NCBI GenBank assembly: GCA_015660995.1
Contig: JACTUC010000008.1
Coordinates: 10,645-74,644, forward strand
Source of the DNA: Candidatus Methanomethylicaceae archaeon
Lineage (GTDB): Archaea > Thermoproteota > Methanomethylicia > Methanomethylicales > Methanomethylicaceae
DNA: 64,000 bases
Direction: 5' to 3'
Shown: one piece after another, positions 8,288-55,532 of the stretch
Numbering within the stretch: the stretch's first letter is position 1
How the letters are laid out: each line of letters begins with the position of its first letter
Program-made: the position numbers and the translations under genes
The notes under the pieces: generated by a model
What the model was told of the DNA's origin: nothing
The model's input: only the letters and a program-made list of their open reading frames with translations
Databases searched by the model: none

Positions 8288-8392
8288 GGGCCGGTAGCTC
8301 AGACTGGCAGAGCGCCCGCTTGGCATTGCGGGCATGCAGCCTCCGCACCAAAGTGCGGGAGGCCACGGGTTCAAATCCCGTCCGGTCCACCA
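8288..8392 (+). tRNA. tRNA-Ala (anticodon GGC) with a 28-nt intron between positions 37/38; CCA encoded
   Basis: Acceptor GGGCCGG/CCGGTCC gives the G3:U70 Ala identity pair, with A73. The D-arm is GCTC-AGACTGGCA-GAGC. Anticodon stem CCCGC/GCGGG only pairs after removing 8326-8353. T-arm is ACGGG-TTCAAAT-CCCGT. Confidence 0.75.
8326..8353 (+). other. Putative tRNA-Ala intron (canonical 37/38 position)
   Basis: TTGCGGGCATGCAGCCTCCGCACCAAAG. Removing it restores a 7-nt anticodon loop TTGGCAT. Contains a hairpin that could contribute to a bulge-helix-bulge. Confidence 0.6.
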
Positions 8393-8543: not shown

Positions 8544-10529
8544 ATGCGGCACAAGATCGCAGCATGCCTCATATTCTGCCTTTTGACCATATCTATCATC
8601 GGAAGTACTGTTGCAGCTGCTGATTGGCCCATGTTCCACTATGATTCAAGCCATACGGGCTACACAACCGATGCCGGCCCTCTCACAAATAATGTTCTGT
8701 GGAAATACACCACCGGTGGCACGGTGGAATCCTCTATCGTCATCTCCGGTGGCTATGTTTACGCCCCCTCAGCTGACAATAATGTCTACTGCCTCAACGC
8801 CACGACCGGCCACCAGGTGTGGAACTACACAACCGGTGGTTACGTGTGGGGGCCAGCTATCGCCAACGGCTACGTCTACGTCGGCTCCGACGATCACAAG
8901 GTCTACTGCCTCAGTGCCCAGACCGGCGCCTTGGTGTGGAGCTACTCGACCGGCGGCTACGTGTACACCCCAACCGTCGCCAATGGCTATGTCTATATTG
9001 GTTCAAATGATCGCAATGTTTACTGCCTCAATGCCTCGACTGGCGCCCAGGTGTGGAACTTTACCACTCAAGGTGAAGTGTACGTTCCCTCCGTCTCCGG
9101 CAGCTACGTCTACATAGGCTCTTCAGACAGTAATGTCTACTGCCTCAATGCCAATACGGGTGCCAAGATATGGAGCTATTCGACCGGCAACTATGTATTA
9201 TCAACCCCTGCTGTCTCTGGCAACGGCTACGTCTACGTGGGGGGCTACGATCACAACGTCTACTGCCTCAATGCCTCAACCGGCGCCCAAGTATGGAGTT
9301 ACGCCACAGGCGGTATCATATTCTCCTCCCCAGCCGTCGCTAATAGCTACGTCTACATTGGCTCCGAAGACAACAACGTCTACTGCCTCAATGCCCAAAC
9401 CGGCGCCCAAGTATGGAGCTATTCGACCAGTAGCAAGGTATTATGCTCCCCCGCCGTCTCTGGCAACGGCTACGTCTACGTCGGTTCCGAAGATCACAAG
9501 GTCTACTGCCTCAGTGCCCAGACCGGCACCTTGGTATGGAGCTACACGACCAGCGGTGTAGTGACGTCCGCCCCTGCTCTCTCCGACGGCGTGCTTTACA
9601 TAGGATCCTTCGACATGAATGTATATGCCTTCGGTACCCCCTCTTCGACAAATTCCTCCAATGTTGTAGCGAATGGCTGGGTTCCTTCGCCCACTCCTGC
9701 AGTAGCAGCTATAGTGGTTGCTGTAGCATTGACGGGCGCGGTCTCGTTCCTCTTTTCAATGGTGAGCAACCCTCTGGGCAGTCTCGGGGGTAAAGCAGGT
9801 GAAAAAACGAAGGGCATCCTTCCTGATAACATTAAGTCGTGGCTAGAGGATTTTGTGGAGTCTAGGCATGAAATTAATGTGGAGGCAAAAATTGGGGCTT
9901 CGTATTTGCCTACAGGGCCCGAGATTTTAGCCTATGGTATTGCTATCGTTGCACTGACGCTCGCGTTCTCCTATGCGGAGGTCAATAGCCTCGCGAATAT
10001 ATTTGAAGTTCTCCCTCTTATTTTGGTCACGAGTGTTCTTGTGGTACTGGTCCAGAAGTTCGTCTCGATCGCGCTTATGCGGAAGCTGGGGGTGTGGAGC
10101 GAATACAAGATTTGGCCCCTAGGTCTCGTACTATTTCTTGTAACCACTCTCGCATTCCGGGTTCCTTTTTCATCACCAACCCGTGACGTGGAAGCTTCTC
10201 ACGAGCCTGCTGAACAAGCTCCACCTTCGTCGCTGACCCCTGAGGCGCATTCCTTGTCCAAGCATACTGAACTTTTCGAAGCGATAGTGCCTGCTTCGGA
10301 AATACTAGTAGGAGTACTTTTTGCAGGACTTTTCTTTATCATATTGAAAAGCGGTTTCACCTTGGTGGGCAGTACGGGCTTGGCGATGTGCATCATTGGT
10401 TCCTTCTTTGAATCTCTTCCCATTGAGCCCCTAGACGGCAAAGACATCTACGACCATAGCAAGATGATTTGGGCAGCCATATTCCTAGGAACTCTGATCT
10501 TGTTCGCATTGTGGGTGCTGCTGCTCTAG
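8544..10529 (+). CDS. Secreted PQQ-repeat beta-propeller fused to a polytopic membrane domain resembling an inactive site-2 protease (M50-like)
   Basis: Signal peptide, about 8 PQQ-like blades (repeats of YVY.GS.D..VYCLNA.TG..VW), then 6 or more TM helices. These carry ALMRKLGVWSEYKIWPLG and SLPIEPLDGKDIY, which parallel the S2P HExxH-region and LDG motifs. HExxH is replaced by QKFVS. Confidence 0.75.
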   Translation: MRHKIAACLIFCLLTISIIGSTVAAADWPMFHYDSSHTGYTTDAGPLTNNVLWKYTTGGTVESSIVISGGYVYAPSADNNVYCLNATTGHQVWNYTTGGYVWGPAIANGYVYVGSDDHKVYCLSAQTGALVWSYSTGGYVYTPTVANGYVYIGSNDRNVYCLNASTGAQVWNFTTQGEVYVPSVSGSYVYIGSSDSNVYCLNANTGAKIWSYSTGNYVLSTPAVSGNGYVYVGGYDHNVYCLNASTGAQVWSYATGGIIFSSPAVANSYVYIGSEDNNVYCLNAQTGAQVWSYSTSSKVLCSPAVSGNGYVYVGSEDHKVYCLSAQTGTLVWSYTTSGVVTSAPALSDGVLYIGSFDMNVYAFGTPSSTNSSNVVANGWVPSPTPAVAAIVVAVALTGAVSFLFSMVSNPLGSLGGKAGEKTKGILPDNIKSWLEDFVESRHEINVEAKIGASYLPTGPEILAYGIAIVALTLAFSYAEVNSLANIFEVLPLILVTSVLVVLVQKFVSIALMRKLGVWSEYKIWPLGLVLFLVTTLAFRVPFSSPTRDVEASHEPAEQAPPSSLTPEAHSLSKHTELFEAIVPASEILVGVLFAGLFFIILKSGFTLVGSTGLAMCIIGSFFESLPIEPLDGKDIYDHSKMIWAAIFLGTLILFALWVLLL

Positions 10530-11760
10530 GAACTCAATCCTCTTGGGTTCCGTAGACATTTTTTTCTATCATCATAGACGTTTGCTTGCTATGAGATATG
10601 TTGATATGTGGTAGGAAATACCTTATTCGAGATTCTGAAAAAGCGTTATATCTTCCATAATATAAGGTCAGTTTGTGACAATCTATGCACTATAAGATTT
10701 TAATAGGCTTATTATGCTGTATTTTAGCTGTATCTGTCTTCGGTGGCATCGTAGCAGCCAGCGATTGGTCCCAATTCCACTATGATGCAAGCCATACGGG
10801 CTATACAACCGATGCTGGCCCCCTTACAAATAATGTTTTCTGGAGCTATAACACCGGCCTTGCAGTGACATCCTCTATCGCCGAATCTGGTGGCTACGTC
10901 TACGCCCCCTCAGGTTCTACTCTCTACTGCTTCACCGCCTCGAGCGGCGCCCAAGTATGGAACTATACTGCCGGTGGTTTGGTTTGGGGCCCAGCCATTT
11001 CCAACGGCTACGTCTACATCGGCTCTGATGACTACCATATCTACTGCCTCAATGCCTCGACCGGTACCCAGGTATGGAACTACACTACTGCCGGTACCGA
11101 TTACACCACAACCGTCTCCGGTAGCTACGTCTACGCAGGCTCTGGTCACTACGTCTACTGCCTCAATGCCTTGACCGGCGCCCAGGTATGGAATTACACA
11201 ACCGGCGGTGGTGCGTATGTTCCCTCCGTCTCCGGTAGCTACGTCTATGTAGGCTCCGATGACGGCAAAGTCTACTGCCTCAATGCCCAGACCGGTGCCT
11301 ATGTATGGAACTACACTACAGGAAATAGTATATACTCCACACCCGCCGTCTCTGGTGGCTACGTCTACGTCGGCTCCGACGATAAAAACGTCTACTGCCT
11401 CAATGCCCAGACCGGTGAAAAAGTATGGAACTACACTACCGGCAGCATTGTATTCTCCGGCCCCGCCGTCGCCAACGGCTACGTCTACGTCGGCTCTAAC
11501 AGTGGTAAATTCTACTGCCTAAATGCCCAGAACGGCGACTTGGTATGGAACTGCACTACCGGCATTGGCTCATTGACACCAGCTATATTATGCTCCCCCG
11601 CTGTCTCTGGCAACAGCTACGTCTACATCGGCTCTGATGACTACAGCATCTACTGCCTCAATGCCAATACGGGCGCCTTGGTATGGAACTACGCTACCGG
11701 CAGCTATGTGACATCCGGCCCCTCTATCGTCAACGGCTTCCTCTACATCGGTTCCAATGA
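8640..11760 (+). repeat. Tandem ~120-nt PQQ-blade coding repeats shared at nucleotide level within and between the two propeller genes
   Basis: Strings such as gtctactgcctcaatgcc(cag/tcg)accggcgcccaggt(g/a)tggaactac recur many times in both genes. Confidence 0.7.
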
Positions 11761-12499
11761 CGGTACGGTCCTTGCCTTCGGGACTCTGCAGAACGCAGTG
11801 CTCAGCATACAGTATTCTGCGCCGAGCGTCACCGTTGGGAACAGTCTTACGGTTTCAGGCTCACTGGCCCCGACTAGCACTGGGACTGCAACCATCTGGG
11901 AGTCCATAAATGGCTCGGCTTTTACCATGCTCAATGAAGCTACCCTGACCAATGGCGGATATTCCTACGCATTCAACCCTTCAGCTGTCGGTTCCTACCA
12001 ATTCTACGCATCCTGGCCAGGCAACTTCCCGTACAACCCTGCCAATTCATCCACCATTACTGTCTCGGTTACAGCTGTTCCATTGACAACCCCAACCCTA
12101 ACCTTGCAAACTTCGGCTTCGAGCATAACCCCTGGACAGTCGGTAACGCTGTCAGGATCACTTAGTCCATCCGCATCGGGAACCGTCGCTCTCTCAGAGT
12201 CGGTTAATGGCTCCGCCTTCCAGCAGATTGCTGCCGCTGTTACCCTTACTAACGGTGCCTATTCCTACCCGTTTGTAATCTCGGGGGCAGGCACCTACAA
12301 GTTCGAAGTGTCATTTCCAGGCAACAGCCAGCTCAACCCAGCCCAGTCTTCCACAGTCACGGTCACCTCAACGCCAGCTACTCCCAGCAGTGGTACAGAT
12401 TATACTATGTACATAATTATCATAGTGGTTGTCGTAATCATCATAGCTGTTCTCTACTACCTGCTAGCAATGAGGCCTAAGAACAAACCAACAAAATGA
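10685..12499 (+). CDS. Surface PQQ-repeat beta-propeller protein with two Ig-like repeats and a C-terminal TM anchor
   Basis: Paralogue of the upstream gene (same signal peptide-DWSQFHYDASHTGYTTDAGPLTNNV start). Two 85-aa S/T-rich repeats. C-terminus is a TPSSGT linker, 23 hydrophobic residues and RPKNKPTK. Confidence 0.8.
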   Translation: MHYKILIGLLCCILAVSVFGGIVAASDWSQFHYDASHTGYTTDAGPLTNNVFWSYNTGLAVTSSIAESGGYVYAPSGSTLYCFTASSGAQVWNYTAGGLVWGPAISNGYVYIGSDDYHIYCLNASTGTQVWNYTTAGTDYTTTVSGSYVYAGSGHYVYCLNALTGAQVWNYTTGGGAYVPSVSGSYVYVGSDDGKVYCLNAQTGAYVWNYTTGNSIYSTPAVSGGYVYVGSDDKNVYCLNAQTGEKVWNYTTGSIVFSGPAVANGYVYVGSNSGKFYCLNAQNGDLVWNCTTGIGSLTPAILCSPAVSGNSYVYIGSDDYSIYCLNANTGALVWNYATGSYVTSGPSIVNGFLYIGSNDGTVLAFGTLQNAVLSIQYSAPSVTVGNSLTVSGSLAPTSTGTATIWESINGSAFTMLNEATLTNGGYSYAFNPSAVGSYQFYASWPGNFPYNPANSSTITVSVTAVPLTTPTLTLQTSASSITPGQSVTLSGSLSPSASGTVALSESVNGSAFQQIAAAVTLTNGAYSYPFVISGAGTYKFEVSFPGNSQLNPAQSSTVTVTSTPATPSSGTDYTMYIIIIVVVVIIIAVLYYLLAMRPKNKPTK

Positions 12500-38920: not shown

Positions 38921-40192
38921 ATGGCCGATTTCACCATCAGGAGTATAAAGGCAAGGGAGATACTCGACTCGCGTGGGAACCCAACGGTCGAGGTGGACGC
39001 AACCACCCAGGCCGGATTCGGAAGGGCTTCTGTCCCCTCCGGCGCCTCAACGGGAACCTACGAGGCGGTGGAGCTTAGGGATGGCGGGAGTAGGTTTCAT
39101 GGCAAGGGGGTGCTCAAGGCTTGCAGAAACGTAGACTCGGTCCTGGCTCCAGCCATTGTAGGGATGGACTCCCGCGACCTTGCCGAGATAGACAAAAAGA
39201 TGATCTCGCTGGACGGTACGGACAATAAGTCCCGGCTTGGCGCAAATGCCATATTGGGCGTATCCTTGGCGGTCGCAAAAGCAGCCGCCGACACGGCAGA
39301 GTTGCCTCTCTTCAAATACCTTAACCCAGACTCCTACCTGCTGCCTGTCCCGCTTATGAACATAATAAACGGCGGCAAGCACGCTGGAAGCAGCCTCGCA
39401 ATCCAGGAATTTATGGTCGTTCCCGTGGGCGCGAAGTCGTTGAAGGATGCTCTGAGAATCGGCTCGGAAGTCTACATGGAGCTGAAAAAGATCCTGAAGG
39501 AGAGCTATGGTCCCTCCGCTATCAATGTGGGGGACGAAGGGGGATTCGCTCCTCCCATTTCGGACTCGCGTACCGCCTTTGGTTCCCTTATCAAGGCGAT
39601 CAAGGGGGCGGGATACACCGAAAACGATGTCAAGATTGCCATCGATTCAGCAGCTACAAGCTTCTACGGCAACGGGAAGTACTCGATAGATGGTGAAACT
39701 CTCGCACCGGACGCGCTTCTAGCTCTCTATGAGAGGCTGGTAGGCGAATACCCAATTATCTCCATTGAAGACCCCTTCGAGGAGGACGATTATTCCTCCT
39801 TTGTGGCAATAACCAAGAACCTTGGCAAGAAGGTTCAGATAATCGGCGACGATATCTTCGTGACCAACATCAAGCGATTTGAAAAGGGCGCTGCCATGGG
39901 TGCTGCCAACTCCCTGCTTCTCAAGGTAAACCAGATAGGCACACTGACCGAGGCAATTGAGGTCGCCAAATACGCCTTCAGCAAAGGCTACACGGTTGTC
40001 GTGAGCCACCGCTCAGGCGAGACGGAGGATTGCTATATTGCAGACCTTGCCGTGACCCTCAATGCCGGACAAATAAAAGCAGGAGCGCCTGCGAGGGGGG
40101 AGAGGATCTCAAAGTACAACCAGCTCATAAGAATAGAAGAGCTGCTGGGTTTGAAAGCAATGTTCCCTGGAAAGAGCGCTTTCAACAGGTGA
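38921..40192 (+). CDS. eno: Enolase
   Basis: Full enolase signature (SHRSGETED, IKLNQIGT equivalents). Confidence 0.95.
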   Translation: MADFTIRSIKAREILDSRGNPTVEVDATTQAGFGRASVPSGASTGTYEAVELRDGGSRFHGKGVLKACRNVDSVLAPAIVGMDSRDLAEIDKKMISLDGTDNKSRLGANAILGVSLAVAKAAADTAELPLFKYLNPDSYLLPVPLMNIINGGKHAGSSLAIQEFMVVPVGAKSLKDALRIGSEVYMELKKILKESYGPSAINVGDEGGFAPPISDSRTAFGSLIKAIKGAGYTENDVKIAIDSAATSFYGNGKYSIDGETLAPDALLALYERLVGEYPIISIEDPFEEDDYSSFVAITKNLGKKVQIIGDDIFVTNIKRFEKGAAMGAANSLLLKVNQIGTLTEAIEVAKYAFSKGYTVVVSHRSGETEDCYIADLAVTLNAGQIKAGAPARGERISKYNQLIRIEELLGLKAMFPGKSAFNR

Positions 40193-40250
40193 GCCCGGAC
40201 AATTAAATTATTGATTGGAAAATGCGAGCAGATGCAGCCCTTAAGATAAT

Positions 40251-40283
40251 GTGTGCGGGATTGAAATTTAACCCCAACCCCAA
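40251..40283. repeat. Island palindrome copy (GTGTGCGGGATTGAAATTTAACCCCAACCCCAA), at the core/island boundary
   Basis: First copy of the GT-rich / AT core / CA-rich motif. Lies just after eno. Confidence 0.6.
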
Positions 40284-40420
40284 TCTGGATTAAGGAAGGG
40301 TCCCTCTGGCAGGCCACGGGACTGGCATTCATTACTCCTACCAAGTAGGAGGTTTATGTCTCCTAAAACCTATGACAGCACTCAACAAAACTATTAAATA
40401 ACAAAATTCCATGTAAGAAA

Positions 40421-40984
40421 GTGGATCTGCCAATGAGTTCTTTTACGGTGCTCAAATCCATCCTCCGCTACTACCTTAGGTACATTGTTGGTTCTCCGCT
40501 ACCCTTCCTCTCCCACCAGGCCTTCTCTGAGTACATAATCTCCGAGAGCAGTAGGTATGAGAAATATTACATTCCTCCTATAGACCTCAAAGATAAAACC
40601 GTTCTTGATGTTGGCGCGGAAGAGGGGTGCACTGCTCTCTTCTTCTTCAAGCATGGTGCCAAAAAGGTTATCTGCATCGAGCCACAGCCCGAGGCCTTCG
40701 CCAACCTGAAAAAAAATGCCGAGGCTCTCAAGTGGAATGCCATTCTCATCAACGATGTCTTTAAATTAGATCATCTAAGCTTGGACGTCAATTTCATCAA
40801 GATGAACATCGAGGGCTATGAGGCACTGATCCTAGATCAACCAATTCCAAAGATTCCTATGGTGATGGAGGTCCACGGCCTGTGGCTCGTCGACGAGTTT
40901 GTAAAAAGAGGGTGGCATAAAGCCTCTGGGAACGATGCCACGCATTGCAGGGCAATGCTCAACAATTGGGGGGTTAAAATTTAA
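40421..40984 (+). CDS. FkbM-family SAM-dependent methyltransferase
   Basis: VLDVGAEEGCTALFF (motif I) and FIKMNIEGYE (FkbM motif). Confidence 0.6.
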   Translation: MDLPMSSFTVLKSILRYYLRYIVGSPLPFLSHQAFSEYIISESSRYEKYYIPPIDLKDKTVLDVGAEEGCTALFFFKHGAKKVICIEPQPEAFANLKKNAEALKWNAILINDVFKLDHLSLDVNFIKMNIEGYEALILDQPIPKIPMVMEVHGLWLVDEFVKRGWHKASGNDATHCRAMLNNWGVKI

Positions 40985-41042
40985 TTCCCACACATATTGG
41001 AAAAACAAAATAATTATACAAAAAAAGAAGTGAGAAGTATTT

Positions 41043-41615
41043 CTATCCTGTTATGTTGCCTGCCAGGACTACAATGTATTCGGTTGAACCAGTGCTGAAG
41101 TCCAGTTTGAGATTAGCTGTTAGGACACCACCGAAATTACCTTGGGCATCGGCGCGAATCAGTAATACACCGCCTGGGTTGGTCTGCCCCTGGCCCACAA
41201 GTGCTTCCGCATAGCGTCCCGTCTGGGCAGCGCCTGACGTAATGGTGTAGGTTGTACCGTTGATTACAATTTCCCCGCTAGTCAATGTCAGGATATACCC
41301 TGCCTTCAGTGCATTTGTCACGGTGAAAGTCATCGTTCCAGAGGCGTCTCCATGCTGGCTAGGATCACCGACTACCTTGAAAGTGCCCATTGTGCTTGTG
41401 ATAGTTATTGTCTGACCCACCGAAAGGTTGGCCGGGATCCCACAGTCACACTTGCGATCGATGGCGGGCATCACGTTATTTGGGGTTGCATTTGTGGTCG
41501 CTGCTATGTTCAGGTTTGCAAATACACCGGGTGTTACTGCCAGAAAGGTGAATATTCCCAGCACTGCCAGGAGTGCCACTATCACTGTGGCCTTTTTGGA
41601 TATTTTCATTGCCAT
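41043..41615 (-). CDS. Secreted hypothetical protein (signal peptide, G/T-rich beta-rich domain)
   Basis: Sec-type signal peptide MAMKISKKATVIVALLAVLGIFTFLAVTPGVFA. No known domain. Confidence 0.45.
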   Translation of the reverse strand: MAMKISKKATVIVALLAVLGIFTFLAVTPGVFANLNIAATTNATPNNVMPAIDRKCDCGIPANLSVGQTITITSTMGTFKVVGDPSQHGDASGTMTFTVTNALKAGYILTLTSGEIVINGTTYTITSGAAQTGRYAEALVGQGQTNPGGVLLIRADAQGNFGGVLTANLKLDFSTGSTEYIVVLAGNITG

Positions 41616-41722
41616 TTGAAATCACCAGGGAAAAACTCCTAAACCAAACGGATTTAACCACTCCCTTTGTCGATATCTCGACTGGAAATTCGAAATTTCG
41701 AAAAAGTCTGTACCATTAAAAT

Positions 41723-41748
41723 CTAATCCCCACACATTTTAAAAAATG
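41723..41748. repeat. Island motif half-copy (CTAATCCCCACACATTTTAAAAAATG)
   Basis: Upstream of the start of minus-strand gene 41043..41615. Confidence 0.5.
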
Positions 41749-41855
41749 TCAAAAGAGTGACAAAAGTGGTAGCCTGTGGTAAGATGACCTATTCTTGTCT
41801 TGTTCATGAAATTCAAACCTCCATCCCTCGTAGGCACCTCTTTGTTGTTCTTTGC

Positions 41856-42974
41856 CTATACTTTCCTCGGTAATCCGAAAGTCAGGATAAACCCGATCAT
41901 TGCTACAGCGGCCAGAAAAATAAGAGTGTAATAGGGAAGAGATATGATCTGACCTACTGTAACAAGAACTAGTATCGCGAAAATGTGTCCTATGAGCATT
42001 ATGAAGCCTGTGATTTGCCCCTGGGACTTATGTTGGATGAATTTCTCGATCCATTCAAAAATTATCGGCCAAGCACTCAGAAGGAAAAAACCGTCCAGAA
42101 TGAGCCATCCCGAAACCCATACAACGTTTTGCCAGATCGCTATTGCTAAAAAAGTGAGTGCTGTGTACAACGATGCTGCCATCAGAATATAGGTTCGTTT
42201 GTTGTGTTTTGATACAATTTGAGGAATAATTGCTGAACCAATAATTCCAGAAATGATCACGATCCCAAGGAGAGAACCAGCAACATCTCCAAGCCCAAAT
42301 TGTGAAAAGATGGGCTGCAACCAACTTGATAAAGAATCAAATATCCCTAGTCCAACAGCAAGTATTCCTCCAAGGATCCATAACTGCTTTTCCTTGAGAA
42401 TCTCTTTTAAACCTCTTGAATAAAATGCAACTTGAATTTGGTCGGAAGAGGGAATCTCCTCCGCTCTAAAAAGAACTGCTAGGCTCCATATGGTCGCCAC
42501 TGCAGTTATTATTGCAATTACAGTTTCAAGGTAAATTATTCCTCCAAGCTGATAGAGTGGATAACCTATGGCCATAGCCACTACGATTCCGGTGTAAATA
42601 CCAATGCTCGATATCGATACTGCGGTTACCCTCTGTTTATCTATAAAATACTTCCGCGCAAAAAGCGGAATTGATGAGAGAATAAACGGCTGTGCAATGG
42701 CACCAATAATCTGGGTGCTGAAGATGAACCCAAAAGATAAGGGATCCAGAAGCCTTCCTATCCCGGCAATTGCATTAAGTACTATTCCAATCAATAATGC
42801 TTTTTTGAAGAATGAATCCAATGCTCTGCCCGATGGTATGGCTAATAGTATATATACAATAGGATACATGACGGCTAAGTAACCTACATACAACACATTT
42901 ACATTAAAAACTGTAGCCATGTAGGTTTCTACAGGAGAAAACGTTACCCAAATTGCCTGGGACGATAAAACCAA
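41856..42974 (-). CDS. MFS-like transporter
   Basis: 10-12 TM helices with an MFS-like loop PSGRALDSF. Downstream of the decarboxylase on the same strand. Confidence 0.55.
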   Translation of the reverse strand: MVLSSQAIWVTFSPVETYMATVFNVNVLYVGYLAVMYPIVYILLAIPSGRALDSFFKKALLIGIVLNAIAGIGRLLDPLSFGFIFSTQIIGAIAQPFILSSIPLFARKYFIDKQRVTAVSISSIGIYTGIVVAMAIGYPLYQLGGIIYLETVIAIITAVATIWSLAVLFRAEEIPSSDQIQVAFYSRGLKEILKEKQLWILGGILAVGLGIFDSLSSWLQPIFSQFGLGDVAGSLLGIVIISGIIGSAIIPQIVSKHNKRTYILMAASLYTALTFLAIAIWQNVVWVSGWLILDGFFLLSAWPIIFEWIEKFIQHKSQGQITGFIMLIGHIFAILVLVTVGQIISLPYYTLIFLAAVAMIGFILTFGLPRKV

Positions 42975-43039
42975 TAATGAGTATCCTATAAGTACAAATG
43001 AAAAGGTAGACTTACTATCAGTCCTCGTGGTTAAGTCTC

Positions 43040-44512
43040 CTAGTTGTCTTTCTCGTCCTTCCTAGTTGGAGTAAAGACCTCATTCACTATCGTCTTGAAT
43101 AATTTTTCAACTAACTCGCTAGGCATGGTTCTAATTAATTGATTGATCAAAGTCATCTGCGAACCACTATCTTCATCAGGGGTACTCAGTGAATGAGAAA
43201 TAGCGGCTACAAGCGAATTTAGTTCCTCTGGATTAAAACTGATGCGGGAAACATCGTTGATGCTTTTATCCCGATTCTGAATATTTTTGTTCCTGACCGA
43301 TTCTGTGCATGTCTTCAGAGACTCAATGAATGGCTCAATGGAATACTCATGAGCAGCGGTGATAGTCATATGTAAAGATGCAACATTATTCAGCTCTTCG
43401 GAGCCGGGCTGGACCTGAAGATACCACCCTTTGGATTTCATCAGGTCTGCGATCTGGAAAATATTAACATCGCCTCTTCTAAAAGCCACGATGCTCGCCT
43501 CCGGTTTGCCTAGAATTTCGTAACCTAAGCCTTCAAGACCCCGTATCAGCTTCTCTCTTGCAATTAGCACTTTTTTTGATAGTTCTATGTAACCTTTCTT
43601 TCCCAAATAGTTCAAGGTTGCCCATGATGCAGCAAGGGGTCCTTCCGATCTCGTTGATTGAAGTGTGGTATTTGCCATTGGGTATCCAGGCCAGCTAGCA
43701 TTCGTGAATAATTGATGTATTCTTAGTTCTTTGGACCTGTAGAGTATCACTGAAGCACCTTTTGGAGCGTAGCCGTACTTGTGAAGATCAGCAGATATCG
43801 AAGTAACTCCCCTGACTGAAAAATCAAATTCAGGCAACTTCTCTCCTAGCAATCTGAAAAACGGAAGGATAAAGCCGCCTATGCAGGCATCCACATGTAA
43901 CCTTACACCCTTCTCTATGGCAATCTCTCCAAGACTTTCTATTGGATCAATAACTCCAATAGGATATGATGGTGCAGAACCAACAATAAGCGCTGTATTT
44001 TCATTTATTCTTCTTTCAACATCCTCAGCTTTTACTTTAAATGTCTTCTTGTCTACGGGGACGACCGTCAAGGTCATATCAAAAAAATCAGCCGCTTTGA
44101 TAAATGAAGGATGGCCAGTGCTAGGTATAATTACTTCTGGTCTTCCTGAACCTCCACATTTGTTTGCCCTATGGTAATCTCTTGCAGACTTTACAGCAAG
44201 CATATTGCTTTCTGTGCCACCACTCGTAAAGTTTCCAACAGTTGTATTATTTCCATTGAGGAGAGATGCAGTCATGGCCACAATATCATTTTCAAGCATA
44301 AGCACACTAGGAAAGACTGTAAAATCAAGGGCGTTCTTGTTCATGAATTCCCAATAAAATTCTCGGATTCTATCAAGTTCTTTATTTCCAGATTCATATA
44401 CATATGAAAATAATTTTCCTTTGTTATCCGGCATATCATGCTTTGAGAATTCACGAAGACCCTTACGAATCTCATAAAAAGACAGACCATCATCTGGCAA
44501 ATCTTTTAACAT
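43040..44512 (-). CDS. PLP-dependent group II decarboxylase / sphingosine-1-phosphate-lyase-like enzyme
   Basis: SGGTESN and SADLHKYGYAPKGASV (Lys of HK binds PLP) match the SPL/GadA fold-type I family. 490 aa with the N-terminal extension typical of SPL-like members. Confidence 0.75.
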   Translation of the reverse strand: MLKDLPDDGLSFYEIRKGLREFSKHDMPDNKGKLFSYVYESGNKELDRIREFYWEFMNKNALDFTVFPSVLMLENDIVAMTASLLNGNNTTVGNFTSGGTESNMLAVKSARDYHRANKCGGSGRPEVIIPSTGHPSFIKAADFFDMTLTVVPVDKKTFKVKAEDVERRINENTALIVGSAPSYPIGVIDPIESLGEIAIEKGVRLHVDACIGGFILPFFRLLGEKLPEFDFSVRGVTSISADLHKYGYAPKGASVILYRSKELRIHQLFTNASWPGYPMANTTLQSTRSEGPLAASWATLNYLGKKGYIELSKKVLIAREKLIRGLEGLGYEILGKPEASIVAFRRGDVNIFQIADLMKSKGWYLQVQPGSEELNNVASLHMTITAAHEYSIEPFIESLKTCTESVRNKNIQNRDKSINDVSRISFNPEELNSLVAAISHSLSTPDEDSGSQMTLINQLIRTMPSELVEKLFKTIVNEVFTPTRKDEKDN

Positions 44513-44640
44513 AAGATCATGATAATAATATTCTCAGCCTTACTTAAGCGTTGATGATATGCTAGGCAGATGGTGAATAGACTAAGGCATTATTTTCTAT
44601 GCGCGGGGGTTAATTCAATTCTTTCTCCTGCTACTGTGTT

Positions 44641-45414
44641 TCATTCCGGAAGCTCCCGTCCGAAGCGCGACTGGACGTCGTATAATGCCCACATCAAGGT
44701 GAAGATGAAGTTGTATACCCAAAGCTTCGGATCCGATCTTGTATATCTGAATTCTCTGACTGAGGCGCGTATGCTCTGCTTGGAGAGAACGCTCTTCATA
44801 GTCTTATAATGTCGACAGTAGGAAGCGAAGCTCTTGACGACCCGGTAGTTCTGGGATAGGATCCACTCCCTGATGTAGGCGTCTTCCAGCGTGTGAAGGT
44901 GGCTCGGGATGTGCAAGTCTTTTACTGCCTCGCGACGCACCAGGAGGTCGTGGCAGCCGCCCCTTAGGTCGAAGACGCGTGACTCCATCCAGAGAAGCGC
45001 GCTGACCATCCGCCTGTTCGTAACAGCTCCAGGGATGTCGACCCCCCAGACCGCGCCTACGTCTGGCTCTCTAAGCCTGCTTGCCTTCTGGAACCAGTCC
45101 CTGCAGAGGACTACGTCGCTGTCGACGAAGACGAACCATTCCGTCTCGACCTCTTGCATCCCCCTATCCCGCGCCTCTCCTCGGGTACCAGTCTCCTCGA
45201 TCACCTTCACATTGCCATACTTGCTTCTGAACTCATCGAGAATCTGGAGTGTGAGGTCCTCTGAATGGCCGTCAACGGCGATCAAGCGATTCACCGGGAC
45301 ATTCTCATATATAGAGCTGAGGCAGTCTCTGAAAATGCCGTCGCTATCCCTGGTCAGGATAACTACGTCGACCTTCTCCATGGTGGTTCTTGATCTCGGT
45401 TTCCTAATTAGCAT
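44641..45414 (-). CDS. Family 2 glycosyltransferase
   Basis: VVILTRDSDG..., DGHSEDLT and FVFVDSDVV (DxD) motifs. Confidence 0.7.
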   Translation of the reverse strand: MLIRKPRSRTTMEKVDVVILTRDSDGIFRDCLSSIYENVPVNRLIAVDGHSEDLTLQILDEFRSKYGNVKVIEETGTRGEARDRGMQEVETEWFVFVDSDVVLCRDWFQKASRLREPDVGAVWGVDIPGAVTNRRMVSALLWMESRVFDLRGGCHDLLVRREAVKDLHIPSHLHTLEDAYIREWILSQNYRVVKSFASYCRHYKTMKSVLSKQSIRASVREFRYTRSDPKLWVYNFIFTLMWALYDVQSRFGRELPE

Positions 45415-45494
45415 TTCTCCTTGAGCATCTTAGTTCCCAGGAGCCAGCTCGCGATGGTCCTGGACCTGACCTAGACAGAAGCTGGACAAAGGGA

Positions 45495-45553
45495 GTGTCT
45501 GTGGGGGTTAAACTTTTGTTTTTTTTACTTGCACACGGGGCCCCACATTAAAT
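45495..45553. repeat. Two facing half-copies (GTGTCTGTGGGGGTTAAAC ... GCACACGGGGCCCCACATTAAAT)
   Basis: Divergent promoter region between the GT2 gene and the first DUF72 gene. Confidence 0.5.
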
Positions 45554-45588
45554 ATGTTTGAAGGATATATCCTCCATAAAAAAGGAAG

Positions 45589-46533
45589 TTGTATATTTTG
45601 GTGGAGTTGTACGTCGGCGCAGGGGGATGGGCTTACTTCATAGTTCCAGATGAGAGCCCTTTAAAGGCCTACTCGAAGACTTTCAACTTCGTAGAAGTGA
45701 ACTCGACTTTTTACGAAATCCCTCAACCCGGTGCTGCAGACGCTTGGAGGAGGGCAGTGCCGCAGTCATTCAGGTTCGCAGTGAGGGCCAATAAGGCGAT
45801 AACCCACAACGATCCATTCGCGCCTTCGCCGGAATCTGAAGACGCACTGCAGGCTACTTTGGAGGTATGCCAAGCGCTAAAGGCAGACGTGCTCCACTTC
45901 CAGACCCCCCAATCATTCAGGATTGGCGATATCGAAGCAAAGCGGATAGGCGATTTCTTCAGTACACTGAATGCGGGCAGCATGCTCTTGGCACTGGAGG
46001 TGAGGGGCGCTTCAGGCGGGGATCTTCCCCATAGCCTAGTAAAGGCAATGCAGGACAATTATATTATCCACTGCGTCGACCTACTGAAAGGCGAAGCGCC
46101 GGCATATGCCGCCGACACACTCTACACCAGAACCTTCGGCAAGGGTGATCACAACATATACCAACCCGATGATGGTGAGCTCAAGGCGGTACATATGACT
46201 GCTTCCATGTACACGAAAGCATACGTGGCCTCCCACAGCGCTAAAATGTACTCAGACGCTGCAAGGCTGATCACATTTGGCAAGACCGGCAAATTCCCCA
46301 TGGTAACCAAGTGCACAGGGCTGAATTCGCTGACTTCTGTCTTGGAAGAGGACGCCAAGTTCCCAGCGACTAAGGACGAGCTGATAAAGAGGCAGGGATG
46401 GAAGCTCTATGACGCATCGGAGGAAGTGAGGGTCAGGGCCGAGGAGCCGCTGAGTAAGCTGCCAGACAGGACTTATGGCAATGTAAATGACCTCTTGCAA
46501 GAACTACATTATCAGGGAGGCGGGGCAGTCTGA
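45589..46533 (+). CDS. DUF72 (UPF0759) family protein, divergent paralogue
   Basis: VGAGGWAY...NSTFYEIP aligns to the DUF72 N-terminal GTSGWSY...STFY motif of the next gene. Confidence 0.6.
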   Translation: MYILVELYVGAGGWAYFIVPDESPLKAYSKTFNFVEVNSTFYEIPQPGAADAWRRAVPQSFRFAVRANKAITHNDPFAPSPESEDALQATLEVCQALKADVLHFQTPQSFRIGDIEAKRIGDFFSTLNAGSMLLALEVRGASGGDLPHSLVKAMQDNYIIHCVDLLKGEAPAYAADTLYTRTFGKGDHNIYQPDDGELKAVHMTASMYTKAYVASHSAKMYSDAARLITFGKTGKFPMVTKCTGLNSLTSVLEEDAKFPATKDELIKRQGWKLYDASEEVRVRAEEPLSKLPDRTYGNVNDLLQELHYQGGGAV

Positions 46534-46547
46534 CTGGCAGGATCCTT

Positions 46548-47399
46548 TTGGGCACGTCCGGCTGGAGCTACAAAGAGTGGGTGGGCCCATTCTATGAGAA
46601 TGACGAGGAGAGTAAGCTCAGAGCCTACACCGAAGTCTTCGGGACGGCAGAGATCGATTCCACATTCTACGCCTACCCTGCAAAGGGTCTTGTCATGGGT
46701 TGGAAGATGAATACGCCCGAAAAGTTTCTTTTTACGGCAAAGCTCCCAAAGGTCATAACGCATGAGAAGATGCTTGATCTCTCGCAGGGTGCGGATCAGG
46801 ACCTGATGAGGTTCGTTGATCTGATGGCGCCTCTTGCCGGGGCTAATAAGCTTGGGTGCCTTCTGATACAGCTCCCGCCAAGCTTCAGCTATGACCCCGG
46901 CAGGCTGGAAGCCTTCTTCAAGGTTATGCCCAAGGGGGTCAGGTTCGCCGCAGAGTTCCGCAACAAATCATGGATGAGAGATGAGACGTGGGAGCTCCTT
47001 AAGGGATACAACGTGGCCTATGTCAATGTGGACGAGCCCCTGCTCCCTCCTGAGGTGCACATAACAGCTGACTTTGCCTACTTCAGGTGGCACGGGCATG
47101 GGAAGAATGTCTGGTTCGACTACAGCTACAGCAAGGAAGAGTTGGAGCCGTGGGTGCTAAAGGTGAAGGAGGTTACCGGAAAAGTGAAGGAGGTCTACGG
47201 CTACTTCAACAACCATTTCCATGGTTATGCAGTTGAGAACTGTTTGCAGGTGATGGAAATGCTAGGGGTAGCGGGTGATGCCCAGAGGGACGCAAAAGAA
47301 AAGATCGAGTCATACAGAGTTTCCTCCGAAAATATCAAAGACAAGACCAAGCATAAGGGGAAAGCTGGGGGAACTCTGGACGTTTTCATGAAAAAATGA
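46548..47399 (+). CDS. DUF72 (UPF0759, YecE-like) family protein
   Basis: Canonical MGTSGWSYKEWVGPFY N-terminus and TIM-barrel-like length. Confidence 0.75.
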   Translation: MGTSGWSYKEWVGPFYENDEESKLRAYTEVFGTAEIDSTFYAYPAKGLVMGWKMNTPEKFLFTAKLPKVITHEKMLDLSQGADQDLMRFVDLMAPLAGANKLGCLLIQLPPSFSYDPGRLEAFFKVMPKGVRFAAEFRNKSWMRDETWELLKGYNVAYVNVDEPLLPPEVHITADFAYFRWHGHGKNVWFDYSYSKEELEPWVLKVKEVTGKVKEVYGYFNNHFHGYAVENCLQVMEMLGVAGDAQRDAKEKIESYRVSSENIKDKTKHKGKAGGTLDVFMKK

Positions 47400-47474
47400 A
47401 AAGGTAATAGTGCGTATTTTGGTCGAACTTCTTTTGCCCTAGAATTCTATTGTTTTGTGCACGATTTGCCATGA

Positions 47475-48083
47475 TTATAGGGTTTTTTCAAGGGTTTCTA
47501 GGTTGAAACTTGTGTTGGTGCAGCCATTTCTTATCAATGGGATGGCCTGTCCTGCAAAGCCCATCTGCCTAAGGCCTTCTGCCCCAAGCTGCACCTCCTG
47601 CCCACAGGCGACACCAACTATTCCATCATATTTGTCTTTCTTCAAGATATTGAGGATGCAAGAGCTACCCGGCAATACGTAAACATTGTACCCATTCTTC
47701 TTGCCCATTTTGGTTGCCCTGTTTATGAGGCAGTCTTCTGAACACTGGCCACAGATATAGGATGGTATATCTGGGTTGAAGGTGGACTTGCACCTGCTGT
47801 CCATATACTTTCTTGAGCAGTGCGGCAGTAATAGCGCCCTATTTTTTGTCCCCTCAAAGCGTTTCCGCTCTGAAAGATTCTGTGAATATACATCTACCAA
47901 GTCCTCAACCAATTGGAGCGTCTCGGGCTCATCCAAACCGGTGATCTTGGTAAGGTTATGGGCTAGGCGTTGCGTTTTCATATCAAATCTTCTTCGAAGC
48001 TTATTCTCGCCGGCAACTTTAGCAAGCTCAATGAAAAATGATTTTGGGATACTGGAGAGATCAAAACTGAACTTGTAAGGCAT
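47475..48083 (-). CDS. DUF116-like cysteine-rich protein
   Basis: LLLPHCSRKY...C...CGQCSEDC cysteine pattern, characteristic of the archaeal DUF116 family. Confidence 0.45.
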   Translation of the reverse strand: MPYKFSFDLSSIPKSFFIELAKVAGENKLRRRFDMKTQRLAHNLTKITGLDEPETLQLVEDLVDVYSQNLSERKRFEGTKNRALLLPHCSRKYMDSRCKSTFNPDIPSYICGQCSEDCLINRATKMGKKNGYNVYVLPGSSCILNILKKDKYDGIVGVACGQEVQLGAEGLRQMGFAGQAIPLIRNGCTNTSFNLETLEKTL

Positions 48084-48105
48084 ACATTCTGCTTACATGC
48101 GTTCG

Positions 48106-48143
48106 AATTAAATATTTCCCCCACAAACACAAAAATTTTTTAA
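48106..48143. repeat. Island motif copy (TTTCCCCCACAAACACAAAAATTTTTTAAAAATACCCC)
   Basis: Immediately upstream of the DUF116 gene start. Confidence 0.5.
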
Positions 48144-48590
48144 AAATACCCCTTATATCCTTCATTATGAAACTGAAAGGCTTTGACAAATTTCGCCTCA
48201 AGATTCCAGCCTTGGCCGGGAGAAAAATCATTATCCTCCCAATATACTTCATCGGAATGATCTCCCTCGCATTATTTGTATTAATCACGTTTTTTTCCTT
48301 GCCTAATCGTTTTCAACCGCAGGGCTGGGATCCATCATTACTCTCGTTTTTGCCGCTATTTGGGTTTCTCATGCTTGGAGTACTAGGATTTTTATTAGAA
48401 AAATAGTGGTTAAATTTTGACTATCAAACCCAATAATTTTGACGTTCATCCCTGCCACCAGAAAATTCACCGTTGTCTGTCGAATAGATCAAGGAAAATA
48501 AATAGAGCAACAGGTAAAGACCCCGACCAATGTCACCGAGGAAGTAATCCATCTGGGGCTCTAATTTTGGTCATGGGAGAACTGAGTAGA

Positions 48591-48887
48591 CTAGAGAAAG
48601 TTAAGCAGTATATTCTTGAATTGCTCATGTTTATTTAATATTTTTATAATTAGATTTGTCACCCACATTATTTCTGTATCAAGTATCTTTGACAGGGCGA
48701 GGGAGACAAAGTAGATCAAAATCCCTAAAGCTATCACCTGAAGCGCATTGATAGACCCAAGAAAGAATACAGTAATTACAAAGATCAGACCATTGATTAT
48801 GATCATTACGCCAGATCTCACTATGAAGCACATCTCTATAGTATCAGCATTTGATGTCATTCCATCAGTTCCTCCTTGAGTTGTCAA
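48591..48887 (-). CDS. Small two-TM membrane protein
   Basis: Two strongly hydrophobic helices. No known domain. Confidence 0.3.
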   Translation of the reverse strand: MTTQGGTDGMTSNADTIEMCFIVRSGVMIIINGLIFVITVFFLGSINALQVIALGILIYFVSLALSKILDTEIMWVTNLIIKILNKHEQFKNILLNFL

Positions 48888-49322
48888 CCAGATATTGAAA
48901 ATCCTTGTATTTTGGCATTTCTATCTTCGAATTTATATCGATCTTATCTGTCCGAAGAATTTTGCCTCTTCTTATGAAGATAATCTAAAACCTAAATCCA
49001 CACACTATCTCTAATTCAACAATTCTTACTCCTACTCTCTCCTGTGCAATTGCTCTGCATCTATCCCCGAGGGCAAAATTTTAATAACCCTAGAAGTGCT
49101 TATCAACTCGATTGAGATGTACCCGTTCGTTTTGCTCACGGACATAATTGCTGTTATTGCAATTATCCTATTGGCGGTTACCACGCTCCTCATCACCTTT
49201 GACAGAGAATAGCGCCGACTATCGTCGGTGGCGCTTTTGAAATTTTTCAACATAAGAATAGGGAGGATCAGTCATAATTAATATAAGCCTCGAAATGACC
49301 TCCTCCTGATATAAATGGAGGA

Positions 49323-52300
49323 TTGCAACTGGTGTCTCGTTCCAAATTTGACTCATTCAACTCATTCATCAGACGCTTCCATCGGCAGATAATAATTGTC
49401 TGGGTCGTGGCGCTTGTGTTCTCGGCTGCGGTGATACCTAGCTTCTTCTCTGGCGTCTCCTATAACATCACTACCCTGGCCAGCTCAGGAGCCCCCCAGA
49501 ACACAGAGTCTCAGATCGCCCAGAACATATTGGACGCACAGTTTCCCTCCTCTAACGGTAGCGGAGACAATAGCATCATACTGGTTATCCAGAACCCGAC
49601 CCCCGGCCTATACTCGGATGCCGTGAAGAACGCTGTCCTCCAGCTCGAACGCACCGTAGGATCCGATCCCAGCCAGGTCAACTATACAGGTGCATCGAGC
49701 ATCTATTCGACCGAGAGCGATCTTCTGAACTCCTCGCTGCCTGGTTTCATCCAGGGCGTGGCGTCCATGGACTCCAACATCACCGCGGTCAACCAGGCCG
49801 TCTTCTCCTTGGAGCAGAACCTTTCGGCCCTCAGCTCCGGCCTCTTCCAGCTGGCGCAGGGGATAAGCCAGACATCTCAGCTGGTCTACGGCATACCCAC
49901 TGCCTTCGTTGGGATCTGGGGTGGAATAGTAGGCGCTGGAGAGACGAACATGACCATCGCCAACCAGGAGGCCAACGCGACCATCTTCGCCCAGACGGGC
50001 AACTTCGGTGGCGACCAGCAGTCAGTGGGATACTATACCGCCTTCTTCGCCTATTGGAGCGCGAGCTTCCAGACAGCCCCCACCCTCACGCCGCTCCAGA
50101 GGGAGGCAGCTGCCATCAGCGGAGCAGTCACCCAGCTAACCTCCAGCCCCTACCTGGACAATGCAACAAAGGTCCTGATCCTAAGCGTGGCCAACGGGCT
50201 CAACGTAACCAGCTGGAACCAGGCCAGCGCCCTAGGTAACCTTACGGTAGAAACATTCGCATCTCAGGTGCCGAGCAGCCTAACCTCGTCCCTTGGCGTT
50301 ACGCCCAGCGACCTCGTGGCCAGCCTCTACAGCCTAGGTCCTTCTCCGTCAGTCGCGGCCCTCACCAACCTTACCATCCCCCTCATCGCGAACGCCTTCG
50401 GCGGCTCCTCCGCGCCCATAGCTGGTTTCTCGATCACTGACTTGGTCGCAGCCTCCTCCTCCCTTGGGCCTTCGCCCAGCCAGAGCGCTGTTTGGAACCT
50501 GGCGGCAGAGTTCTTCTCAAATACGACGGCGAGCGCCCTTGAGGCATCGCCCCTCTTTACGGTCAATGCGACCTCCCTCAGTGGCCTCCTCTCGGGCCTC
50601 AGTCCCTCCAGCTCTGCTGCCCAGCTAGCGAGCGCAATAGACGCCGTAGTATATAATGAGAGCTTCTCCAACTATCCCCTTGTACTCTCAAGGTCCCTGA
50701 CTCAGAACTTCGTGGGGACAGAGAATGACACCATGATTGTCGTGTTTAGTTACTCTTCAACTCTTAGTCCCGACACCCTCGCAGGGTTCCAGCAGGACGT
50801 GAAGAGCTCAGACCTCTCATCAATGGCGACGACCTACGTCACCGGCGGGGCTGTGATCAGCCATGATTTTGAAGACGCCTTCAGCCCCGTCATTGGAGCG
50901 ATCTCGAGCGTCGGAATCGTTGCCTCCATAATTATCGCCATAATCCTCTTCGGGGCACCCCTTGCGGCCATCCTTCCGCTGCTTCTCGGGGGCATCTCCA
51001 TAGTTATCGGCTACGCAGCCATCTACCTTGGCGTGGTGGTAGCCGGAAGCGGCAAGATAACCTTCCTCACACCTACACTGGCTACGCTCATCATGCTGGG
51101 CCTAGCCGTTGACTACTCTGTCCTTCAGCTCCGAAGGATGAAGGAGGAGAGGGCCAAGGGAAAGTCAAAGGAGGAGAGCGTGGCCACATCGGTCAGATGG
51201 TCCGGCCAGGCCGTGCTTACTGCAGGGATTACCGTCGTCGTAGCCTACGTCATCCTGGCGGTGGTGAACGTGCCCATATTCAACGACGTCGGCGTAGCCA
51301 TAGCCCTGGGGGTCTCCATCCTTCTTCTGGCGTCGGTGACGCTGCTTCCGTCCCTTGAGCTGCTACTTGGGGACCGCCTCTTCTGGCCTCGCCTAAAGGT
51401 TAACAGTCACGAATCAAAGCCTGGCCGCCTAGCAAGGGTATCCGATGCTACCCTCAAGAGAAAGGTGGCAGTCACGGTGGTGATATCGCTCTTCGCTGTC
51501 TGCGCGGTCGCAGCTGTGGCCAGCACCCCCACGGGGCTCGACATTCTGAAGCTCATCCCGAACACCCAGAGCAACCAGGGCCTGACGGTCATGACGAACA
51601 GCCTGGGCGGTGGAACCATCTCCCCCACATCGATTCTGGTCACAATGCCCTCCGCCATAGTCTACGGAGACAACCAGTTTAACCAGACGCTACTGAACCA
51701 GATCGAGCTCATATCGTCCAAGGTAGCTGGCTCCTCAGGCGTGGTTAGCGTAACGGGCCCCACCAGGCCCTATGGATCTTCATTCAATTTCTCGTCCATA
51801 GGGGAGATGCCTGAGCCCATCCTCTCCCAGTACCTAGACGGCATGCTCTCCTACATAGGAAAGGACAACACCACAGCGCTCATATCCGTCGGATTCAATT
51901 CTCCCATGATGAGCGCCCAGTCCGTCGCTTCACTGGATAAATTAGAGTCCCAAGTGAAGTCCACATCCCTCATTAATGGGGTCGTTGTGCATTATGGCGG
52001 AGAGGCTTCCCAGACGAAGGATAATGAGCAGTTCATAAATGGGCTGATACCGGAGATCTTGATCATCCTCTCCATAGCGGTCTACCTGATCCTGTTCTTC
52101 CAACTAAGGTCCGCCTTTACGCCCCTCAGGCTTATCTTCACCATCCTCTGCAGCGCGGCCTTCTCTCTGGCCCTGCTTGACTTCACCTTTACTTACATAC
52201 TGAAGCTGCCCGTGCTCAACTTCGTGGCACTCTTCGTGATAGTGACCATGCTGGGCGTCGGCATTGACTACGACATCTTCTATGTTACGAGAATACGAGA

Positions 52301-52595: not shown

Positions 52596-52673
52596 GCAGG
52601 CACATGTTTGCCCAGGAGAGAAAGAGAAAGAGTAGGACTCAACAACTCGCTTCTTCTTACTCTCTCCTACTAA

Positions 52674-52949
52674 GTGCGCACACAACGCACGCGCGAATTT
52701 ATATACAATGAAGCTTTACTAATGATGGAGTTCTTTGAAATGGCAGAAAAAGGAAAAACTACTGACAACCGCAGCATGCATGTAACCATTCTGGGCGTAC
52801 TAGGAATACTCTTCGCGATCATTGGAGCAGCAATAATTGCTATTCCTGGTATGCCTGGGCGAGGCTCAGGTATAGGCACTGGCTTAGTTGTGATAGGTGT
52901 CGTGCTGCTGGTCATTGCTTTCTTAAGGCTTTACTACAAGCGCCCATAA
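52674..52949 (+). CDS. Small two-TM membrane protein
   Basis: ILGVLGILFAIIGAAIIAI and GLVVIGVVLLVIAFL helices. Start may be the internal MAEKG. Confidence 0.35.
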   Translation: MRTQRTREFIYNEALLMMEFFEMAEKGKTTDNRSMHVTILGVLGILFAIIGAAIIAIPGMPGRGSGIGTGLVVIGVVLLVIAFLRLYYKRP

Positions 52950-53045
52950 TGAGTCTTCTTTTATAGACTCATCCATTTTCTTCTTTTTTCCATATATTTT
53001 GTGTCGTGTGCACAGTTGACTGGCAAAGTGACAGAGTGACTGACT

Positions 53046-55505: not shown

Positions 55506-55532
55506 TCTTTAACCCCCCAAACCCAAACGGCT

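Follow-up and report, generated by a model that had tools for sequence, protein, structure and literature searches.

A probable pseudoprotease domain descended from site-2 proteases at the C-terminus of archaeal cell-surface proteins

The rhomboid pseudoproteases, iRhoms and Derlins, have changed the understanding of intramembrane proteolysis. Among the site-2 proteases (S2Ps, peptidase family M50) plant EGY3 is the sole pseudoprotease that we found discussed in the literature. In the S2P homolog RseP the strand region following the HExxH helix forms the substrate-binding edge and the Asn of the NxxP motif (N394) hydrogen-bonds the substrate backbone, with even an isosteric N-to-D change impairing cleavage (PMC9401612). 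Here we looked at a gene from a Candidatus Methanomethylicaceae archaeon (assembly GCA_015660995.1, contig JACTUC010000008.1, positions 10,645 to 74,644 of the forward strand; this whole stretch of 64,000 nucleotides is referred to as the window and all coordinates are positions within it). The open reading frame (ORF) at 8544-10529 on the + strand is a single ATG-to-stop frame of 661 residues in which an eight-bladed beta-propeller precedes a polytopic C-terminal domain. Both the ORF and the two motif strings quoted in a preliminary description of the locus, VLVQKFVSIALMRKLGVWSEYKIWPLG (residues 501-527) and ESLPIEPLDGKDIY (residues 623-636), are exactly as given there. We consider it probable, at roughly 0.7, that the product is an archaeal surface protein in which a polytopic domain derived from an S2P, and catalytically dead, acts as anchor or scaffold for one of a set of interchangeable ectodomains.

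Profile comparison bears out the proposal of the preliminary description that the polytopic domain at the C-terminus aligns with the M50/S2P core, and the two are homologous. Three profiles were used, a domain-only family profile (A3), one of six relatives bearing an HExxH motif (A4) and one of 24 true S2Ps (A5). With hhalign the family profile aligned with the HExxH-bearing relatives at a probability of 99.9% (E 7.7e-36, 236 columns), the QKFVS of our protein (the query) lying opposite HEFAH, and with the bona fide PF02163 S2Ps at 97.8% (E 6.9e-13, 183 columns), pairing Q with H, K with E, S with H, R with R, G with G, W with W, E with E and LDG with FDG. Reversed-profile controls gave probabilities of 0.1-12% overall, with 0.1% (E 0.57) for the true S2Ps and an E of 0.027 for the HExxH-bearing relatives. 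Plain MAFFT alignment gives the same register, with Q504/K505/S508 opposite H/E/H and D631 opposite the LDG Asp, so that the replacement of HExxH by QKxxS noted earlier stands, and the motifs match collinearly in four distinct regions. When searched against 177,635 PDB sequences the A4 profile had a single match, 3B4R, the Methanocaldococcus jannaschii site-2 protease (MjS2P), in two collinear stretches comprising the HExxH helix and AGP...PMDGG, and 3B4R was likewise the sole match of A5 (E 8e-10). A compact archaeal S2P of 226 residues (P0206) and its 2,586 relatives are all annotated as PF02163 'site-2 protease family protein', and the 24 S2Ps of A5 were drawn from this set. Within the window a hidden Markov model (HMM) of true S2Ps, run against all six-frame ORFs, matched this ORF alone (34.6 bits).

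The core and its motifs, together with the whole gene, are as follows.

8544..10529, + strand: whole coding sequence, 661 residues with the stop codon included in the coordinates; predicted signal peptide, eight-bladed propeller, stalk, first transmembrane helix (TM1), putative cytoplasmic linker and S2P-derived core
9918..10526, + strand: S2P/M50-derived membrane core, residues 459-661 (hhalign against true S2Ps, S2P HMM match, structure prediction)
10053..10067, + strand: Q504-K505-F-V-S508, degenerate HExxH in which neither the zinc-binding His residues nor the catalytic Glu is retained (hhalign, MAFFT)
10089..10190, + strand: G516-V-W-S-E520...PFSSPTR-D-V549, predicted strand, short hydrophobic helix and strand
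10191..10247, + strand: acidic and Pro-rich insertion of 19 residues, EASHEPAEQAPPSSLTPEA, residues 550-568, directly after the invariant PFSSPTR and unique to the query
10296..10313, + strand: S585-E-I-L-V-G590, degenerate AGPxxN with G replaced by E586, P by I587 and N by G590 (table of S2P-invariant columns)
10410..10439, + strand: E623-S-L-P-I-E-P-L-D631-G632, degenerate NxxPxxxLDG with Asn replaced by Glu and with P626 and G632 kept

In order to follow the fate of the catalytic residues we compared the columns that are invariant in true S2Ps with the same columns in 30 close relatives of the query. Six residues are 100% conserved in the query family (E460, W518, E520, P545, P626 and K640), G516 (28/30) and G632 (29/30) are nearly invariant, and K/R522, V549 and F622 are largely kept. 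Seven positions are lost across the family, namely the His, Glu and His of HExxH, the G-P and the N of AGPxxN, the Asn of NxxP and the Asp of LDG. The columns of Q504, K505 and S508 vary from member to member of the family, and the NxxP Asn column holds G, D or E in the 30 close relatives, E623 in the query. The substitutions therefore go beyond HExxH, to which the preliminary description had limited them. It had also regarded the LDG Asp as kept, which is true of the query itself (D631), yet this is not a conserved relic, as the column holds S, N or G in 25 of the 30 close relatives and Asp in only 10 of 173 wider members. We rejected D631 as a retained zinc ligand for this reason and because the query lies in the most derived clade. 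The region G516...V549 corresponds to the beta region that in S2Ps re-enters the membrane after the HExxH helix, and the best-conserved residues of the core are located here, W518, E520 and P545 being invariant in the query family and in true S2Ps alike. The EASHEPAEQAPPSSLTPEA insertion is absent from all relatives in alignment A1 and was treated as an insertion relative to the A3 profile. With the zinc-binding and catalytic residues, AGPxxN and the clamping Asn all lost, the domain would be unable to bind zinc or to hydrolyse peptides in the S2P manner, and its homology to a protease, loss of catalytic residues and retention of scaffold residues across many lineages together indicate a pseudoprotease.

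Active-type relatives illustrate where such a domain is likely to have come from, and here the question raised earlier, whether HExxH is intact in homologs, has a positive answer. Among 173 near-complete domains that were aligned, six distant members (P0154, P0155, P0158, P0181, P0187 and P0198) carry an intact HExxH, which hhalign places opposite the Q-K-F-V-S of the query, as well as D/E-G where LDG would be and the motif L-A-G-P. In all six the HExxH and beta-loop portion of Pfam Peptidase_M50 is matched, with scores reaching 23.7 bits, just short of the PF02163 gathering threshold of 27.2 bits. Kin of P0198 at 66% identity carry PF02163, and the NCBI name for P0202 is 'M50 family metallopeptidase'; both P0198 and P0202 come from Candidatus Hydrothermarchaeales. 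Like the query, these archaeal relatives consist of an ectodomain, TM1, a linker and an S2P core, with ectodomains of similar type (propeller, PKD, CarboxypepD_reg). Unlike the query they retain HExxH, AGP and D/E-G and are probably active, whereas the query clade has W-V-P-x-P and PFSSP[TS]R motifs of its own. In a neighbour-joining tree rooted on true S2Ps the HExxH members lie nearest the root, with partly decayed HEFVQ, HDIAH and SELVR forms, and the query falls in the most derived clade, 'QKFxS / PMSG'. Some HExxH-bearing relatives also show weak AglB/STT3 core-like or S-layer (S_layer_C) matches in their ectodomains (P0154 at residues ~92-139, P0198 and P0203 in the N-terminal region), which hints at a link to the cell envelope or to glycosylation.

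Several results weigh against our interpretation. The search with Pfam Peptidase_M50 that the preliminary description had recommended gave no match at E <= 10 for the full protein, its C-terminal part or 58 close relatives, and an NCBIfam scan gave no M50 match for the query or these relatives. Comparison of a predicted model with S2P structures, also recommended, was no more favourable, as Foldseek against the PDB placed the second of two AlphaFold2 (AF2) models on 3B4R at a non-significant E of 7.1 over 64 columns. The alignment behind this model included true S2Ps, and it is therefore not independent evidence of fold. The tree carries no support values and its order of loss is indicative only. 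Lastly, the strict conservation of GVWxE and PFSSP[TS]R exceeds the apparent need of a passive anchor and hints at a further function. The lack of a Pfam or NCBIfam M50 match is not taken as a refutation because the profile-level tests are positive; the idea that a missing M50 match and an unrelated fold should settle the matter proved too blunt, and the quick Pfam and Foldseek tests taken alone would have led us wrongly to dismiss the S2P link.

Searches of the PDB sequences by phmmer and hmmsearch with the query and the first family alignment returned nothing relevant. The first AF2 model, of 291 residues, had a predicted local distance difference test (pLDDT) score of 68 with low confidence for TM1 and the linker, and Foldseek found no meaningful match for it. 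The second model, of residues 450-661, reached a pLDDT of 88 and a predicted template modelling score of 0.80, and consists of a helix (458-479), a long helix carrying QKFVS (483-514), then a strand (520-523), a short hydrophobic helix (525-538) and a second strand (546-549), a low-confidence stretch over the 19-residue insertion, where the pLDDT is the lowest of the core, two further helices (570-602 and 606-623), a break at LPIEPLDG and a final helix. One NCBIfam entry, NF041501 'FGLLP motif-containing membrane protein' (cola_mem), is matched weakly by 37 of 58 family members over the last helix pair, at 20-30 bits against a cut-off of 150, and the query is not a member. As true PF02163 S2Ps also match NF041501 weakly, P0307 over almost its whole length, we read the weak match of the query to this model as an echo of S2P ancestry, and the NF041501 family itself appears S2P-like. 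A full-text literature search for 'FGLLP' returned unrelated papers only, with nothing published under the motif name.

The domain is not peculiar to this protein. A search with the C-terminal 291 residues alone brought up 57 relatives; Pfam annotates this part in none of them, and their N-terminal domains differ (PQQ, YVTN, VWA). An exhaustive HMMER search with A3 extended the family to at least 909 representatives at 50% identity (E <= 1e-3; 400 at E <= 1e-10). We take it to be an S2P-derived, mostly catalytically dead, C-terminal module of diverse surface proteins. Across these 909 clusters the domain is always C-terminal, behind 0-1800 residues of other sequence. The clusters are nearly all archaeal, and the family appears restricted to archaea. 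A scan of one genome per species gave 78 loci, nearly all in archaeal metagenome-assembled genomes (MAGs) of several lineages, mostly soil and peat Bathyarchaeia along with Methanomassiliicoccales and other Thermoplasmata, a few Nitrososphaerales and distant Methanobrevibacter relatives, and several of these genomes carry two or three copies. The query itself comes from a Methanomethylicaceae MAG. Two loci (L063 and L070) belong to MAGs labelled Saccharibacteria and Clostridiales, where they sit on short contigs; wrongly binned archaeal DNA is the probable cause, not a genuine presence in bacteria. In 71 full-length members the ectodomains fused to the core include PQQ propellers (11), PKD (9) and Big_3_5 (6) as well as InlB B-repeats, Y_Y_Y, FG-GAP, NHL/YncE propellers, VWA and CARDB, a set of domains typical of binding at the cell surface. 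The family falls outside all Pfam and NCBIfam models, and our literature search found no description of it or of its architecture, though an earlier mention may exist; the preliminary description, too, had known this architecture from no described family.

The part of the query that precedes the core is made up of the following features.

8544..8621, + strand: predicted N-terminal signal peptide, residues 1-26, MRHK followed by a hydrophobic core and VAAA, hydropathy peak at residues 5-23
8622..9638, + strand: eight-bladed PQQ/BamB-type beta-propeller ectodomain, residues 27-365 (Pfam)
9639..9698, + strand: Ser/Thr/Pro-rich stalk, residues 366-385, ending in the clade-conserved W-V-P-x-P
9699..9764, + strand: TM1, an extra transmembrane helix predicted to lead from the ectodomain to the cytoplasmic linker, residues 386-407, hydropathy 2.51
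9765..9917, + strand: basic and amphipathic linker of ~51 residues, residues 408-458, family consensus LPDxxKKWLExxVxSKRKL

The signal peptide would be cleaved. The propeller is recognised by PF13570 (4.2e-80) and PF13360 (1.1e-57) and contains eight VYCL/VYAF blade motifs spaced regularly at a period of ~40 residues, from which we count eight blades, in agreement with the earlier account. It appears to be a generic PQQ-like repeat serving as a binding domain rather than a quinoprotein enzyme. Identity with BamB was rejected, the scores being 180 bits for NF008351 against a cut-off of 423 and 178 for TIGR03300 against 285, and the 'BamB' name given by JGI is read as a transfer error since these scores fall far under the BamB equivalog cut-offs; archaea are not known to have a BAM machinery. 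A PQQ dehydrogenase (quinoprotein) was likewise rejected, at 91.7 bits for TIGR03075 against a cut-off of 480 and 39.8 for TIGR03074 against 833. Six N-x-S/T sequons occur in the protein, five in the propeller and the sixth in the adjoining stalk, and with the signal peptide their confinement to ectodomain and stalk leads us to place the propeller outside the cell. The W and P of the stalk are invariant or nearly so in alignments A1 and A3. TM1 is helical in the AF2 model and aligns by hhalign with the equivalent segment of the HExxH-bearing relatives, and the homologous linker of these active-type relatives is aligned from column 33. The linker, in which W and S are conserved in the family and the pLDDT is low, would on this topology be cytoplasmic. 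Should the short hydrophobic helix that separates the strands of the core be re-entrant, as its equivalent is in S2Ps, the pseudo-HExxH and LPIEPLDG would lie near the cytoplasmic face, and the Lys/Arg-rich loops would presumably be inside as well.

The next gene downstream carries a related propeller.

10685..12499, + strand: adjacent tandem paralogue, propeller 63% identical (BLASTP E 5e-154; Pfam)

In this paralogue the propeller is followed by two Ig-like (Big_3_5) domains and then by a single C-terminal transmembrane helix with a short basic tail, with no S2P-like module. As a propeller of 63% identity is here mounted on a different anchor, ectodomain and anchor are evidently exchanged as modules.

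Taken together, these features suggest how the protein may be built and used. The signal peptide would export the eight-bladed PQQ/BamB-type propeller, the Ser/Thr/Pro stalk would lead into TM1 crossing the membrane, and the basic linker of ~51 residues would run along the cytoplasmic face before the chain forms a polytopic domain of ~200 residues descended from an ectodomain-fused site-2 (M50) protease. In this domain the S2P scaffold residues are kept while zinc binding and S2P-type peptide hydrolysis are probably gone, and it most likely serves as a stable multi-span C-terminal anchor or scaffold for exchangeable binding domains. Since GVWxE, PFSSP[TS]R, TM1 and the linker are extremely well conserved, the former substrate groove may still hold a transmembrane helix, either its own TM1 or that of a partner. 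The idea of a pseudo-protease acting as a membrane scaffold, which the preliminary description had put forward, thus receives support from the profiles as far as descent from an S2P that is now dead is concerned, while the scaffold role remains a likely rather than a demonstrated one.

A retained helix in the groove can also be read differently, in that TM1 and the linker might form a built-in substrate or pseudo-substrate docked in the S2P groove, members with HExxH cleaving their own TM1 and so shedding the ectodomain while dead members such as the query hold TM1 permanently in a compact anchor of seven segments. We regard this as unlikely. TM1, linker and core are indeed common to active-type and dead members and can be aligned across both, the linker and the W-V-P-x-P junction are conserved, and the best-conserved part of the domain is the S2P edge-strand region, the strand of which binds substrate in RseP (PMC9401612). 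Against this, TM1 and the linker have low confidence in the first model, no cleavage product is known, and TM1 would run from outside to inside, an orientation that may or may not suit S2P cleavage. In its widest form, which we hold to be distinctly improbable, the entire archaeal superfamily would be a surface anchoring-and-shedding system in which HExxH members cut the tethered TM1 in cis and the dead majority clasp it permanently. Cis cleavage, if true, would represent the first intramembrane protease with its substrate in the same polypeptide, and its subsequent freezing would document an evolutionary route from enzyme to anchor.

It is also rather doubtful that the domain is a regulatory pseudoprotease in the manner of iRhoms and EGY3, one that binds, stabilises or sequesters client membrane proteins or modulates an S2P while the ectodomain acts as a sensor. 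There is a precedent in EGY3, an S2P homolog lacking HExxH that stabilises other chloroplast proteins (PMC10978774), and the motifs lining the groove are strongly conserved. The two related loci that we compared, however, share no neighbouring gene or obvious partner, neither a genuine HExxH/LDG S2P gene nor a second copy of the domain was found in the window, and the many paralogues per genome with very diverse ectodomains fit an anchor module better. Very improbable is a domain that is still an enzyme through another catalytic arrangement of invariant polar residues (E460, E520, usually H521, K522 and R547). Both E460 and E520 are 100% conserved and H is the majority residue at 521 in the family, but true S2Ps with a normal zinc site show the same invariance at E460, E520 and a basic residue at 522, position 521 is Tyr in the query, and no set of metal ligands is conserved; we therefore rejected a new active site built on E460 and E520 and take the two residues to belong to the scaffold. 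A chance resemblance of hydrophobic helices without any real S2P relationship, with which the absent Pfam M50 match and the non-significant Foldseek result would agree, is effectively refuted by the profile tests, given the hhalign scores of both comparisons against their reversed controls, the family members with intact HExxH at the same columns, the collinear motifs of four regions and 3B4R as the only PDB match of the intermediate profiles.

The surroundings of the gene are archaeal and include an aCPSF1-type beta-CASP nuclease, a PUA protein, an Sm protein and L37e. The identical protein is present on 24 public contigs. In its NCBI record, MGA2573353.1, the sole description is 'PQQ-binding-like beta-propeller repeat protein [Candidatus Methanomethylicaceae...]' and the JGI label is 'outer membrane protein assembly factor BamB', the C-terminal third being without annotation in public records of the protein. 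A tRNA of 102 nucleotides lies ~155 bp upstream of the gene (window 8288-8389, + strand; 57.4 bits in Rfam against a gathering score of 29). It is missing from the ARAGORN output, and its length suggests an intron-containing archaeal tRNA. In the last third of the window (~40000-50000 and 52000-64000) the G+C content is down to 0.41-0.48 from ~0.55, apart from a single 2-kb peak at 50-52 kb that reaches 0.58, and the low-G+C part may be a region of different origin.

Recognition of this domain would add a new type of archaeal cell-surface anchor and correct the annotation of hundreds of archaeal envelope proteins. The family also offers a natural series from active through decayed to dead S2P in which the role of the scaffold can be studied without catalysis.

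In comparison with known M50/S2P proteins (PF02163, including group III members such as MjS2P, 3B4R, and Thermoplasmatota S2Ps of ~226 residues) the query has a core that is homologous by profile comparison and is predicted to follow the same order of helix, HExxH-position helix, strand/re-entrant/strand, AGP-position helix, NxxPxxxDG-position helix and terminal helix, with E460, G516, W518, E520, P545, P626, G632 and K640 as shared scaffold residues. It differs in having other residues in place of the two zinc-binding His, the catalytic Glu, AGPxxN and the Asn of NxxP, in scoring below every curated M50 threshold, and in having an extra N-terminal transmembrane helix, a putative cytoplasmic linker and a large, presumably extracellular domain but no PDZ or CBS domain. 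EGY3 of plant chloroplasts, which we compared by description, resembles it as an S2P homolog without HExxH that is regarded as non-proteolytic and has a stabilising role (PMC10978774), but is eukaryotic and located in plastids, has no surface ectodomain fusion and represents an independent loss. Rhomboid pseudoproteases such as iRhoms and Derlins are similar in concept, an intramembrane protease fold without catalysis being reused for the binding or handling of membrane proteins, although theirs is an unrelated serine-protease fold and the likeness is one of analogy only. S2P pseudoproteases in plants (EGY3) and pseudoproteases in general (iRhoms) were already known, and what appears to be new is this archaeal family.

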